In this document: positions 37,331 to 41,426 of the stretch, in pieces
Layout: the number at the start of each line of letters is the position of its first letter
How positions within the stretch are numbered: position 1 is the first letter of the stretch
Assembly (NCBI GenBank): GCA_934101115.1
Contig: CAKOPW010000001.1
Span: 73,295 to 137,294, forward strand
DNA length: 64,000 bases
Direction of reading: 5' to 3'
Source: an uncultured Bacilli bacterium
Lineage (GTDB): Bacteria > Bacillota_I > Bacilli_A > RF39 > UBA660
Notes under the pieces: model-generated
Databases searched by the model: none
The model's input: the letters and a program-made list of their open reading frames with translations, nothing else
What the model was told of the DNA's origin: nothing
Position numbers and translations under genes: made by a program

Positions 37331-38245
37331 GAACTCTTTTAATGCATAAATTTGGTCATAACCACTTTTTAATTTTAAATCTAGATTGGATAAAGAAACA
37401 ATTATATCTTTTAATTGATCAAGAGTATAAATTTTTCCGTTTCTTTTTAATACTCCTACTCTTTTTGGATTAGAATATCCAAATAGTTTAGCTATTTCTT
37501 CATCACTTAAACCATCAGCAGAAGCACTTTTTACCATATAAATGTTGGTAAAACTACTAGCAAGAAGTGCTACTATATTAATTGGTTCACTTCCATTTTT
37601 TAATAGAGTATCTAAATATTTAAATCCTAAATTAAAATCCTTAGCTATTATCGCATTTGAAAAAGCAAATGTTACATCCTCATCATTTTTTTTAGTGTTT
37701 GAAGCAACTAAATCATGAGTTATATTGTTGCTTAAATTGGAAAGCCTTTCAATCTCATTGATAGTTATATCTATATTATTTGAACTATTATTATATATTT
37801 CCAATAAAGCATCTCTATTTATACTTATATTCTCTTTTTTAAAATAATCAACTATATAAGTTACAACATCATCTTCATTATTACCAGTTAAATCAATAAA
37901 TTTTACTCCTAAAGAAATTAAATCTTTTACAATTTTTTTAGATTTTAAAACTTCGTCATTAATAAAAATTACCATTGTCTCATCATCTAAATTGGATAAT
38001 GCACTTTTTAATTTATTGCATTCTTCCTCATATGAAAAATTACCAGCAAAGTATTTTACGTTTTTTACAATTATACATTTGCTCTCAGAAAAAAGTCCAA
38101 AATGTTGCATGCTTTCTATTACATCATCAATCAAATCTTCCACTAAAGAAAAATTTTCAATCTCTTTGTAGTCTTTACTAAGCTCTTTGATTTTATCATT
38201 TAAAAATGTAAAACTATTTGATTTAATAATGTATTTATTTTCCAT
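37316..38245 (-). CDS. holA: DNA polymerase III delta subunit
   Basis: Starts at MENKYIIKSN, ATG at 38245 with GGTGGA upstream. The 53 upstream codons in the ORF track are the antisense of tRNA-His. Confidence 0.75.
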   Translation of the reverse strand: MENKYIIKSNSFTFLNDKIKELSKDYKEIENFSLVEDLIDDVIESMQHFGLFSESKCIIVKNVKYFAGNFSYEEECNKLKSALSNLDDETMVIFINDEVLKSKKIVKDLISLGVKFIDLTGNNEDDVVTYIVDYFKKENISINRDALLEIYNNSSNNIDITINEIERLSNLSNNITHDLVASNTKKNDEDVTFAFSNAIIAKDFNLGFKYLDTLLKNGSEPINIVALLASSFTNIYMVKSASADGLSDEEIAKLFGYSNPKRVGVLKRNGKIYTLDQLKDIIVSLSNLDLKLKSGYDQIYALKEFLLDL

Positions 38246-38336
38246 ATGATCCACCTTTAAAATTATAGCATTTAAAATTAATATAATAAAGGACTTGCAA
38301 TACATAAAATTATTTGATAGAATTAGATATGTCAAT

Positions 38337-38413
38337 GGCGAAATTGGTGAAGTGGTTAACACGCCGGATTGTGGCTCCGGTATGCGTGGGTTCGATTCCC
38401 ACATTTCGCCCCA
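38337..38413 (+). tRNA. tRNA-His (GTG)
   Basis: Hand-folded. G-1 pairs with C73. Acceptor GCGAAAT/ATTTCGC. Anticodon stem CCGGA/TCCGG with loop TTGTGGC. T-arm GTGGG-TTCGATT-CCCAC. CCA is encoded. Confidence 0.9.
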
Positions 38414-38423
38414 TTGAAAAATT

Positions 38424-38454
38424 AAAACTAAGAATTAATTTCTTAGTTTTTTTC
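38424..38454 (+). terminator. tRNA-His terminator
   Basis: AAAACTAAGAA-ttaat-TTCTTAGTTTT followed by a T-run. Confidence 0.75.
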
Positions 38455-38484
38455 TTGCAAATAATATCGAACATTTGTTATAAT
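38455..38484 (+). promoter_or_regulatory. Near-consensus promoter of the small-peptide mRNA
   Basis: TTGCAA (38455-38460), 18 nt, then extended -10 TGtTATAAT (38476-38484). Confidence 0.65.
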
Positions 38485-38551
38485 TTTACTAGGAATATCA
38501 GTTGTTGAGTGTCTACCTCCATTCTTTATAGAGAGGAGGTTCTTGATATAT

Positions 38552-38647
38552 ATGGGAAAGAAAGATTTCTTAATCTTAAGCTTGATCATTATAATCATTT
38601 TGTTAATAGCCTTACTCTTCATTACTTTGAAGCAGTATCACCTATAA
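38552..38647 (+). CDS. 31-aa hydrophobic peptide, candidate type I toxin
   Basis: MGKKDFLILSLIIIIILLIALLFITLKQYHL. GGAGG (38535-38539) lies 12 nt upstream and can pair with CCTCC (38516-38520). Confidence 0.6.
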   Translation: MGKKDFLILSLIIIIILLIALLFITLKQYHL

Positions 38648-38758
38648 ATAAAAACGACACTCATCTGCAAAGATAAGTGTCTACAATATTTTCAGGTAGA
38701 CATTCAACATGCAAAAACTGAATGTTCCCTTTTTTATTGTATGCAATATCGCATCTCT
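38648..38758 (-). ncRNA. Candidate antitoxin antisense RNA (about 110 nt)
   Basis: Minus strand has TTGCAA (38793-38788), 17 nt, then TAATAT (38770-38765). It ends with terminator GACACTTATCT-ttgc-AGATGAGTGTC plus GTTTTTATTT (38681-38646). It overlaps the 3' UTR of the peptide mRNA. Confidence 0.5.
38700..38736 (+). terminator. Terminator of the peptide mRNA
   Basis: ACATTCA-acatgcaaaaac-TGAATGT followed by TCCCTTTTTTA. Confidence 0.65.
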
Positions 38759-38944
38759 AAATACATATTACTACATATGTTTTTATTTTGCAAGAAAATA
38801 TATGGTTTTACTATTGTTAGAAGAAACTTATAAAATGCATAAATCTCTATTATCTATATTGTAACTTTCGTTCAACATTTAAAAATTTTGTGTTTTCATA
38901 TTGACGTATTTTTTTGAAATCAAGTTTTACTACACTGCTTATAA

Positions 38945-39796
38945 TTATAAATCGTTTTTCGTTATATAATCAGCCAATTTCAAAGCCATATCAAAATATC
39001 TGCCATCATGTTGTGTGCCTTTTATTTCTCCAGGAATTTTTCTTTCATCCCATTCTGGGGCATCTAGTAAATCACCGCTTATAAAAAACGTATAAAGATT
39101 TAAATTTCTAAATTGACACATTGCCTCTACTGAAGCACATTCCATTTCCACTGATATACACCCATCAGCTTTATGTTTTTCAAAATTATTTTTAGTTTCT
39201 CTATAAAAAGCATCGGTAGTCCATGTCTTACCTAAAACATATGGAATATTATATTCTTTCATAAAATTAGCAACTATACTATTATTCTTAATTTCAATAT
39301 AATCTGATGCTTTAGCATAATGATATGATGTTCCCTCGTCTCTATAAGCCTCAGTAGGAATAATAACCTTGCCCATAGTAATTTCTTTGTTTAAGCATCC
39401 TGCTCCACCAAATAAAACATATTTATTAACATTAAGTTCCTGGAATGAATCTTCGATTGATCCAACACATGCTGGTCCACCAACGTAAGTTCTAAAAAAA
39501 GCAAACTTATGGCCATTATATTCAAGTTCATATATTGGCGTAATCCCAGTTACAAATTTATACTCTGCAATTTTTACACAATTATAATTATCTAAAATGT
39601 ATTGCTCAATAATGTTTGAAAATGTAATTATACAAGCATCCACTTTAATCGCATGTTCTTTTCTTTTTGGATTGATAATTGCTTCTGATTTATCATCAAA
39701 TGAATTAATTATCACATAATCACTACCTTTCAAGACAATTATACAGGATTTTTTATGTCTAATCAAGATTGTGTCTTTCTTGTTTTCAAAGCACAA
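38945..39796 (-). CDS. Nucleoside phosphorylase family protein (PNP/UDP type)
   Basis: GGAGCL...IPTEAYRDEGTSYHY...SVEMECASV pattern. The start is uncertain, since the listed start is a TTG. Confidence 0.65.
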   Translation of the reverse strand: MCFENKKDTILIRHKKSCIIVLKGSDYVIINSFDDKSEAIINPKRKEHAIKVDACIITFSNIIEQYILDNYNCVKIAEYKFVTGITPIYELEYNGHKFAFFRTYVGGPACVGSIEDSFQELNVNKYVLFGGAGCLNKEITMGKVIIPTEAYRDEGTSYHYAKASDYIEIKNNSIVANFMKEYNIPYVLGKTWTTDAFYRETKNNFEKHKADGCISVEMECASVEAMCQFRNLNLYTFFISGDLLDAPEWDERKIPGEIKGTQHDGRYFDMALKLADYITKNDL

Positions 39797-39999
39797 TTGC
39801 CCTTGTCAAAAGTATTTATTGTTATGCTTATTATCACACTATTGATCACTTTACTCATCAATTGAAAAATTAAAACTAAGAATTAATTTTCTTAGTTTTT
39901 TCTTGCAAATAATATCGAACATTTGTTATAATTTCACTAGGAACATCAGTTGTTGAGTGTCTACCTCCATTCTTTATTGAGAGGAGGTTCTTGGTATAT

Positions 40000-40083
40000 A
40001 TGGGAAAGAAAGATTTCTTAATCTTAAGCTTGATCATTATAATCATTTTGTTAATAGCCTTACTCTTCATCACTTTGAAGTAG
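40000..40083 (+). CDS. 27-aa variant of the hydrophobic peptide
   Basis: MGKKDFLILSLIIIIILLIALLFITLK. The CAG codon of copy 1 is TAG here (40081-40083). Confidence 0.5.
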   Translation: MGKKDFLILSLIIIIILLIALLFITLK

Positions 40084-40095
40084 TATCACCTATAA

Positions 40096-40206
40096 ATAAA
40101 AACGACACTCATCTGCAAAGATAAGTGTCAAACCATATTTTGGGTAGACATTCAACTTAGCCATACTGAATGTTCCCTTTTTTATTGTATGCAATATTGC
40201 ATCTCT
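40096..40206 (-). ncRNA. Candidate antisense RNA, copy 2
   Basis: TTGCAA at 40241-40236, 17 nt, then TAATAT. The terminator hairpin is the same as in copy 1. Confidence 0.45.
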
Positions 40207-40289
40207 AAATACATATTACTACATATGTTTTTATTTTGCAAGAAAATATATTATTGTATATTATTGTATACATAAACACCTGCTTGAAT

Positions 40290-41426
40290 TTATTTCTTCA
40301 AGTTATCCTTTTTTAAGTTTTCTTGAATAAAAGCATCAAGGTCTTTAAAAATCAATTCTTTTTGTATAAATATAGAGCGATGATTTCCTTCATACATTAT
40401 GGAAGTTGAGTTTAATCCAAGACTCTCGTAAATTTTTTGTTGCTTTATAAATCTTTCTTGCACTCTTGTTCCAAGTACTTTATTGATACAATTTACATCT
40501 TCGTCACTAAATAAACCATATTTTGCAGTATAATTACCATTTTCATCTAAAACAAATACTTGGTTTCCATTTTCGTCAATTCTTGGAGTTAAATTACCAC
40601 ATTCGTCCCTATATAGTTCTTCTTCTCCTTTATCATTTATAAAAGTATAGTTTTCAAAATAAGGTATAGCCGAATCTGATTTATCCGCATCACCAACATA
40701 AAAGAAAAAAGATATTTTTTTAAAAGATTCAAAATCAAAATTTGGTAATCCACTTATTCCTGTTGGGTATTTAAATTCATAACCGCCCATTTCTGAAACT
40801 GGCATTGAAATTGCTCCACCTGTCCCACCAGCGATAACTCCTTTTATTATTTCTAGGTGTAATAAAGATAAGTGCGAAACAAATTTTGCTCCTTCTGAGT
40901 AACCACATAAGGTTGCTTTTTCAGAAACATCTATTTTTTCTGCTTTTAAAATATTTACAGCAGTTTCGATTATAGCTTTATGTTGATCAGCCAAGTTTTT
41001 ATACATATACATATATTTTTCAAAGCGTTTATCATTTCCTTTTAATTCAAAATCATTCAAAAGGCAATCTCTTCCCAAAAAGTTTGGTCTAAAGTCTTTT
41101 AATCTTGGAATATAAGGAATAACCATAGGATTTCCATCATCAACGCATAAATGGTAATGAATTGGATCTATTGATCTAAATTTTCTTCTTTCTTCTACAT
41201 TTTCTTCCTTTGCACAATATATCAATTCTTCCATTGTTGAACAATTTTCAGAATTATTAGCAGTAAGATTACAAGCATATATCAATTCCGGATTCTCAAC
41301 TATCGTTTGAGGAATAATTATTATAAACGGAAAATAAAATCCTAATTCAGGATTAGCTTCCACTTCTATGCAATTTACAACTGCACCTTTAAAGTTCATT
41401 TGTTTCATAAAATCATCTACTTTCAT
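40290..41426 (-). CDS. Alpha/beta-hydrolase-like protein
   Basis: 378 aa. A GYSEG (GxSxG-type) nucleophile elbow followed by GGTGGA. Confidence 0.45.
   Translation of the reverse strand: MKVDDFMKQMNFKGAVVNCIEVEANPELGFYFPFIIIIPQTIVENPELIYACNLTANNSENCSTMEELIYCAKEENVEERRKFRSIDPIHYHLCVDDGNPMVIPYIPRLKDFRPNFLGRDCLLNDFELKGNDKRFEKYMYMYKNLADQHKAIIETAVNILKAEKIDVSEKATLCGYSEGAKFVSHLSLLHLEIIKGVIAGGTGGAISMPVSEMGGYEFKYPTGISGLPNFDFESFKKISFFFYVGDADKSDSAIPYFENYTFINDKGEEELYRDECGNLTPRIDENGNQVFVLDENGNYTAKYGLFSDEDVNCINKVLGTRVQERFIKQQKIYESLGLNSTSIMYEGNHRSIFIQKELIFKDLDAFIQENLKKDNLKK

Follow-up and report, generated by a model that had tools for sequence, protein, structure and literature searches.

Background

[quoted passage not shown] In par (fst/RNA II of Enterococcus faecalis pAD1), repeats that cover the start region are the main sites of interaction and the terminator is shared; the antitoxins of tisB/istR-1 and dinQ/agrB from Escherichia coli are encoded divergently or act in trans, and their pairing site is the 5' UTR. 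The activation of the tisB/dinQ-type toxin mRNAs is ascribed to 5' processing (PMC5066626). In hok (hok/Sok of plasmid R1) and in aapA (aapA/IsoA of Helicobacter pylori) the antisense RNA is directed at the 5' region, the SD is masked either by the closing interaction or by an element linked to it, and trimming of the 3' end activates the mRNA (PMC9841398, PMC6733600). In the bsrG mRNA, encoded in the SPβ prophage of Bacillus subtilis, nt 1-35 pair with nt 232-262 (helix P1) and the antitoxin SR4 has its complement in the 3' region; once SR4 is bound, nt 1-33 are single-stranded and the SD helix is extended from 4 to 8 bp (PMC3834814).

Here we analyse a cassette found in the window (the whole 64,000-nt stretch of DNA under study, from an uncultured Bacilli bacterium; coordinates refer to it unless a contig is named), in which the 5' end of a predicted toxin mRNA pairs with its 3' end. 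We think it rather probable that this pairing serves as the closing helix in a cassette that resembles type I toxin-antitoxin systems and follows a bsrG/SR4-like logic, and bsrG/SR4 is the closest case characterised by experiment. As there, the toxin mRNA is overlapped at its 3' end by a convergent antisense RNA (predicted here), its first ~35 nt lie in a long helix with a 3' region complementary to the antitoxin, and the SD is held in a short helix; binding of the antisense RNA, probed there and predicted here for the window copy only, would free the 5' strand and lengthen the SD helix. The two systems differ in that bsrG has a terminator stem-loop of its own beyond P1, whereas here the terminal hairpin provides both its arms as the 3' strand of the helix, which extends to the U tract. 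Moreover, a second co-varying partner of the leader lies here beyond the stop codon, and the promoter contains a LexA-type box. No similarity of the peptides in sequence or profile was detected in scans of Pfam and NCBIfam.

With hok/Sok and aapA/IsoA the cassette shares the end-to-end closure of the full-length toxin mRNA and a succession of structures during transcription; however, the antisense target is here the 3' strand of the helix, and the SD is occluded by a local anti-SD located upstream. An earlier sequence-only reading of the locus had compared it with the fbi/tac logic of hok, which is apt for the shape of the 5'-3' fold-back but not for the antisense RNA, directed at the 3' UTR and not at the 5' region. 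The likeness to par consists in convergent transcription and in direct repeats (38508-38517 and 38676-38685, 10 bp) that give the antitoxin complementarity to the 5' region, but the overlap of the predicted antisense RNA with the 3' UTR amounts to about 90 nt and the peptides have no Pfam match to the Fst family. Pfam likewise reported no match of the peptides to the Hok/Gef family. With tisB/istR-1 and dinQ/agrB the cassette has in common a LexA-type operator and a structured primary transcript predicted to be poorly translated.

The predicted toxin gene

The toxin mRNA is predicted from promoter and U-tract motifs to extend over about 244 nt of the plus strand (38492-38735). Its predicted sigma-70-type promoter (38455-38484) consists of the -35 element TTGCAA (38455-38460) and the -10 element TATAAT (38479-38484), the latter preceded by TG. 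In 114 of 127 homologous modules the sense -10 is located 6-8 nt ahead of the first G of the leader, therefore we place the predicted +1 at 38491/38492, which makes the helix begin at the 5' terminus. Between the -35 and the -10, overlapping the latter, lies a putative LexA-type operator (CGAACATTTGTTAT, 38468-38481 on the plus strand; 39916-39929 in the second copy of the cassette). It is nearly identical to the palindromic boxes AGAACATTTGTTCG and TAAACATTTGTTTG that precede the genome's own lexA (contig C45:4872), and the cassette is probably under SOS control. Other genomic copies carry the sequence CGAACA(A/T)(A/T)TGTAT, placed differently relative to their promoters.

The leader is followed by an anti-SD/SD hairpin (38516-38539, plus strand) formed in prefix folds as well as in full-length folds by CCTCC (38516-38520) and GGAGG (38535-38539). 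According to folds of the window copy, this hairpin comprises 6+4 bp with a free leader but shrinks to 3+4 bp upon closure of the mRNA; ACC (38515-38517) of the leader is common to the pairing with the 3'a arm and to the pairing with the SD. The toxin-like ORF (38552-38647, plus strand), recognised from its translation and by comparison with relatives, has 31 codons and encodes the hydrophobic peptide MGKKDFLILSLIIIIILLIALLFITLKQYHL. At 38633-38635 copy 1 has CAG, whereas copy 2, the copy on contig C7 and most relatives have the stop codon TAG; the copy-1 peptide is therefore 31 aa long, against a family norm of 27 aa. In the peptides (27-31 aa), which fall into two families, the charged character of the N-terminus and the hydrophobic character of the core are conserved. 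One RNA chassis carries two unrelated peptide types: a 27-aa type M(N/S/G)KKDFLILSL... and a 30-aa type MKTKTFIIKVLKL...IKK. The short hydrophobic membrane-peptide ORF with a sequestered SD expected of a type I TA toxin is present. Searches of Pfam and NCBIfam with four peptide variants (E up to 10) revealed nothing meaningful, and the Rfam scan of 37800-40800 (E up to 1) reported only tRNA-His and chance matches.

The closing helix of the window copy

The leader GTTGAGTGTCTACCT (38504-38518) and the segment AGGTAGACATTCAAC of the 3' UTR (38694-38708) form the 15-nt fold-back, with 14 Watson-Crick pairs and one G-U, that the sequence-only reading had proposed, and both the positions and the pairing proved correct in the window sequence. 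An inverted-repeat search identified a pair of 16 nt (38503-38518 / 38694-38709, 94% complementary), in which G38509·T38703 (G·U in RNA) is the sole non-Watson-Crick position. The reverse complement of the leader has an expectation of 0.01 in dinucleotide shuffles of the window, and it is present at 38694. The proposed extent was however too short, the 5'-terminal 11 nt and the last arm of the 3' end having been missed. In the fold, two successive segments of the leader, L_B (GGAATATCAGT / GGAAUAUCAGU, 38492-38502, plus strand) and L_A (TGTTGAGTGTCTACCT, 38503-38518, plus strand), pair with two arms of the 3' UTR, L_A with 3'a (AGGTAGACATTCAACA, 38694-38709, plus strand; also found by the repeat search) and L_B with 3'b (ACTGAATGTTCC / ACUGAAUGUUCC, 38717-38728, plus strand). 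The 3'b arm is followed by a C and by the U tract (38730-38735), the whole element covering 38717-38735.

The closing helix so defined has 27 bp, including 2 G·U pairs, with one bulged A and a 7-nt bulge at 38710-38716 (plus strand); the latter is the loop of a local hairpin and varies between copies. It runs from the predicted +1 to the U tract, pairing the first 27 nt of the predicted toxin mRNA with the last ~40 nt and occupying both "terminator" arms. Two contacts noticed in the earlier reading are borne out: the anti-SD CCTCC overlaps and adjoins the leader arm, and the 3' partner includes ACATTCA (38700-38706), the 5' arm of the local 3' hairpin. The switch between a "closed" and a "terminator/open" form that had been proposed on this basis is not supported in that form, as the helix consumes the two terminator arms and extends as far as the U tract. 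To judge from the sequence comparisons, the real alternative for the leader is a segment just 3' of the stop codon (P5), not a terminator form.

Folding of the full-length mRNA, which had been named as a check, supports the helix: the predicted transcript (38492-38735) has an MFE of -74.7 kcal/mol and contains it (z = -7.56; 0 of 200 shuffles as stable). Copy 2 of the toxin mRNA (39940-40183, plus strand; leader 39940-39966, 3'a 40142-40157, 3'b 40165-40176), which has a 27-codon ORF, forms the same helix (duplex -34.9 kcal/mol; 22.9 expected closing pairs). As had been observed before, it retains GGTAGACATTCAAC at 40143-40156, and its spacer and loop differ from those of copy 1.

Conservation and covariation in relatives

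The comparative sample consisted of 63 full modules from related genomes and of modules anchored only on an 18-nt 3' motif; combined, it comprised at least 126 distinct leader/tail combinations among the matches listed, from a species-wide genome collection. Flanking regions and chance motif matches in unrelated phyla were used as negative controls. The closing duplex has a mean energy of -33 kcal/mol in the 126 distinct modules, and duplexes of -30 to -41 kcal/mol are found ~215-245 nt upstream of the 3'-anchored motif in many genera, as opposed to about -15 kcal/mol for flanking regions or chance matches and -11.6 for shuffled tails. Partition-function calculations gave a mean of 24-25 expected closing pairs, with at least 15 in each of the homologous mRNAs (60/60).

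In alignment A1, 94.9% of cells are standard pairs, compared with 39-46% if the partner columns are slid, and five pairs with 24 cells are altered on both sides (0 of 500 shuffles match the score), but many of the homologues are closely related, so that cell counts overstate the number of independent events. Examples of two-sided changes are A-U 41 / G-C 18 and C-G 20 / U-G 28 / U-A 11. Helix 1, formed by L_B and 3'b, is paired in 99.1% of cells, with 4 pairs changed on both sides; helix 2 is paired in only 88.8%, because MAFFT shifts about 10 leaders that have an extra A by one column, a misplacement that is avoided in the partner-anchored pair count. The distal helix has been rewritten lineage-wide (CUACC:GGUAG; UUGCC:GGCAA; CUUGCC:GGCAAG; CGUCC:GACG; CUAUCC:GGAUAG), and hybrid duplexes, made of a leader of one main type and a tail of the other, are less stable by about 10 kcal/mol. 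All 126 modules pair the penultimate C ahead of the U tract with a leader G, and 106 of the 126 pair the last C in this way.

In the helix between the leader and the 3' end (126 modules), 3046 Watson-Crick pairs and 323 G·U pairs contrast with only 6 A/C oppositions. The excess of G·U over A/C (323 vs 6) therefore places the selection on the sense RNA and not on the DNA or on the antisense strand. Homologous loci, where a loss of the complementarity had been regarded as evidence against the fold-back, preserve it with co-varying changes. The conservation and covariation in more than 120 cassettes therefore identify the closing helix as a real, selected RNA structure; the selection is both purifying and compensatory, and it acts on the sense RNA.

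A second partner of the leader

RNAalifold analysis of 20 full-length mRNAs recovered the outer helix and paired the core of L_A (UGAGUGUC, 38506-38513, plus strand) with GACACUCA (38656-38663), an alternative partner that belongs to P5 (38656-38666), the 5' arm of a post-stop hairpin whose other arm is P3 (38671-38681); on the plus strand P5 and P3 represent the arms of the terminator stem of the antisense RNA (see below). The L_A:P5 pairing has a mean energy of -12.2 kcal/mol and comprises 1041 Watson-Crick pairs, 151 G·U and 2 A/C oppositions. It co-varies also at the position where the pairing with 3'a has a bulge (A:U 26, G:C 14 and C:G 4 of 48); we considered that it could be an alignment artefact and dropped this idea in view of the genuine covariation. 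Altogether, six related segments with a core close to GAGTGTC alternate along the mRNA in the order L_B, L_A, ..., P5, P3, 3'a, 3'b.

For the window copy, the calculated energies are -74.5 kcal/mol for the final closed form, -70.8 kcal/mol for the conformer with L_A on P5 and -58.6 kcal/mol for the best fold without long-range pairs, ~16 kcal/mol above the closed form. Family-wide, the 3'a conformer beats the P5 conformer by a median of 7-8 kcal/mol. In folds of successive prefixes of the window copy, the SD is in the 6+4-bp hairpin from the outset, L_A settles on P5 once the region of the stop codon has emerged (-47.8 kcal/mol) and shifts to 3'a upon its emergence, before 3'b is made; L_B then pairs with 3'b. 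As the pairing with P5 is real yet weaker than that with 3'a, we read P5 as probably a co-transcriptional docking site for the leader.

The predicted antisense RNA and the strand under selection

The predicted antisense (antitoxin) RNA is encoded on the minus strand (38646-38758, ~110 nt), its ends being placed according to promoter and terminator motifs and its structure predicted by folding. It is convergent with the toxin mRNA and complementary to the entire 3' UTR (about 90 nt). The predicted promoter (38765-38793, minus strand) has the -35 element TTGCAA (38793-38788), a 17-nt spacer and the -10 element TAATAT (38770-38765). An extended -10 (TGn) is present on the minus strand in 115 of 127 homologous modules, and the best minus-strand -10 sits 33-37 nt from the mimic of the leader in 105 of 127. 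The terminator (38646-38681, minus strand), identified by a terminator scan, consists of the stem 38681-38656 and a subsequent U run; the scan reported sites on the minus strand only, directly 3' of the stop codons of both copies, and flagged no site on the plus strand at the cassette. The leader mimic GGGAACATTCAGT...GTTGAATGTCTACCT forms a hairpin in the fold of the predicted antisense RNA. The suggestion, made from the sequence, that the antisense RNA and the leader compete for one 3' site is true by construction.

The direction of wobble pairs is different in the local hairpins. The 3'a:3'b hairpin shows in the sense orientation 59 C/A oppositions vs 26 G·U, and in 111 of 126 modules its antisense version is the more stable of the two (mean energies -10.5 kcal/mol antisense, -5.8 kcal/mol sense). 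For the post-stop P5:P3 stems, reading in the sense orientation yields 66 C/A oppositions, which correspond to G·U on the antisense strand. This C/A bias and the higher stability on the antisense strand indicate therefore that the local hairpins belong to the antisense RNA. Thus, the local 3' and post-stop hairpins appear to be optimised on the antisense strand, while in the mRNA the same segments seem to be tuned to the leader. The same DNA would accordingly encode, on its other strand, an antisense RNA in which, as computed from the sequences, these segments form two local hairpins better than they do in the mRNA.

The segment AAGTGTCTAC (38676-38685, plus strand) repeats the leader core GAGTGTCTAC (38508-38517) in direct orientation. 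Since this repeat lies inside the antisense gene, the antisense RNA could form 10 bp with the leader; in homologous modules the pairing of L_A with the reverse complement of P3 has a mean energy of -12.7 kcal/mol.

Some loci have the 3' arms and the U tract with no complementary leader within 300 nt upstream (L073, L076, L083, L107, L116, L119, L125, L140, L146, L176 and L180; another is at contig C49:161-206 of the source genome). These leaderless loci may be orphan antisense-RNA genes or decayed cassettes.

Accessibility of the SD

In full-length folds the SD of type-1 modules is slightly more open if the mRNA is closed (0.25 vs 0.21), and type-2 modules behave in the opposite direction (0.15 closed vs 0.28). 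A local model predicted a looser SD in the closed state in 89 of 119 modules, and forcing either partner upon the leader produced no systematic difference in the SD. As the three modelling schemes disagree in direction, we claim no family-wide effect on translation. What we commit to, on the basis of the models, is that the helix would close the mRNA and that the antisense RNA would have to open the helix; the helix probably stabilises the mRNA, and it may well be coupled to translation.

In some relatives (L148, L096, L133; contig C2:112580-112960) the 3' arm contains GGAGG or GAGG. In those variants the 3' arm pairs with the anti-SD itself, and the 3' UTR is a mimic of the SD that competes for the anti-SD.

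Proposed mechanism and alternative explanations

We propose that the helix assembles during transcription. The adjacent anti-SD would sequester the SD from the start, the leader core would dock on P5, the first complementary segment after the stop codon, and would be transferred to the 3'a arm upon its emergence, and finally the 5' end would pair with 3'b beside the U tract. In the computed folds, the 5' end of the mRNA is locked in this way to the bases that immediately precede the U tract. Once closed, the mRNA would be a stable, poorly translated form. The antisense RNA would bind the 3' UTR via the unpaired spacer and the bulge and strip the leader off, which would expose both RNA ends to nucleases and, in the window copy, let the anti-SD helix grow from 3+4 to 6+4 bp.

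The helix may also double as an intrinsic terminator, as it ends at the U tract and the local hairpin is weak. The upstream arm of this terminator would be the 5'-terminal 11-12 nt of the docked leader, and the transcript would be born closed. We regard this reading as tentative; it is compatible with the closing-helix explanation and not exclusive of it. It agrees with the position of the helix end, 0-1 nt before the conserved U tract, with the G-C pairs at the helix base and with the prefix folds, which put L_A on 3'a before 3'b exists. The local sense hairpin is weak, with a mean of -5.8 kcal/mol (above -3 in 10 of 126 modules) and a loop of ~12 nt, and the terminator scan found no plus-strand site. 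On the other hand, a local hairpin that abuts the U tract is possible in the window copy (-6.9 kcal/mol), and long-range stems are, to our knowledge, not an established mechanism of termination. A more comprehensive proposal, which we likewise put forward only as a possibility, is that one DNA stretch is read as two folds, distinguished by the wobble asymmetry: the antisense RNA would form the local hairpins, and in the sense RNA the leader would dock successively on P5, 3'a and 3'b, thereby supplying the upstream arm of its own terminator, with the result that the mRNA is born closed and is opened only by the antisense RNA.

An unlikely alternative is a reservoir of the hok kind, in which the closed mRNA would be inert and refractory to the antisense RNA until slow 3' exonucleolytic trimming frees the leader and enables translation. 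The architecture does match tac/fbi of hok and the 5'-3' long-distance interactions of aapA (PMC9841398, PMC6733600), and for type-2 modules a more accessible SD is predicted if the 3' UTR is masked. The trimming logic of hok and aapA fits poorly, however, because the antisense target is the 3' UTR and trimming would delete it; besides, the freed leader tightens the anti-SD helix in the window copy and in most type-1 modules, and the upstream anti-SD sequesters the SD without any long-range pairing. Still less probable, in our opinion, is that the segments arose by duplication and owe their retention solely to the folding of the antisense RNA, the complementarity of the leader being without function in the mRNA. 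A core close to GAGTGTC does recur in the segments and makes their relatedness recognisable, and the hairpins of the antisense strand are clearly selected, but the leader lies outside the antisense RNA and yet follows both of its partners by compensatory changes, and its departures are nearly all G·U (323 vs 6 with the 3' end, 151 vs 2 with P5). A DNA-level role, be it as terminal inverted repeats of a small mobile element or as a recombination site, comes to mind for a cassette that is multi-copy, often in tandem, and adjoins a tRNA gene. Both promoters are however situated outside the repeats, the similarity of the copies runs past the repeats, a transposase is absent nearby and recognition of DNA would not be expected to generate a strand-specific wobble asymmetry. 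We consider this extremely improbable, and a mobile element or DNA inverted repeat was rejected on account of the wobble asymmetry and the promoter positions.

Distribution and significance

The source genome (1.54 Mb) contains at least 9 full or partial copies of the cassette on four contigs. It is widespread in the taxonomic family to which this genome belongs: 54 of 151 genomes contained one subtype, and 171 of 401 genomes, representing 116 of 214 genera, contained the second. Among the matches listed are uncultured gut Bacilli or "Tenericutes", Coprobacillus sp. CAG:605, Firmicutes bacterium CAG:582 and Candidatus Ventrenecus. Tandem arrays that mix both peptide types occur at contig C2:112200-113380 and at C7:70300-71270, and the window has its array at 38413-40251. 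The window copies begin directly after tRNA-His (38338-38410 region) and flank a minus-strand gene of 283 codons (38945-39796). Between the copies of an array the stems are conserved, and the bulge or loop and the spacer differ; this divergence would give each antisense RNA a copy-specific contact site.

We found no catalogued family for the cassette in Rfam, Pfam, NCBIfam or the literature. The cassette family seems to be undescribed, while the kind of RNA structure it employs is already known. The cassettes are unannotated in the genomes, and the helix makes them easy to find. With hundreds of copies in more than 100 genera of small-genome gut Bacilli, the family constitutes a large natural data set, in which covariation together with the direction of wobble pairs separates the closing helix, the second docking site and the antisense hairpins from one another. 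It thus becomes testable how the binding of an antisense RNA at the 3' end reaches the ribosome-binding site, how both ends of the RNA gain protection and whether a long-range helix can act as a terminator.
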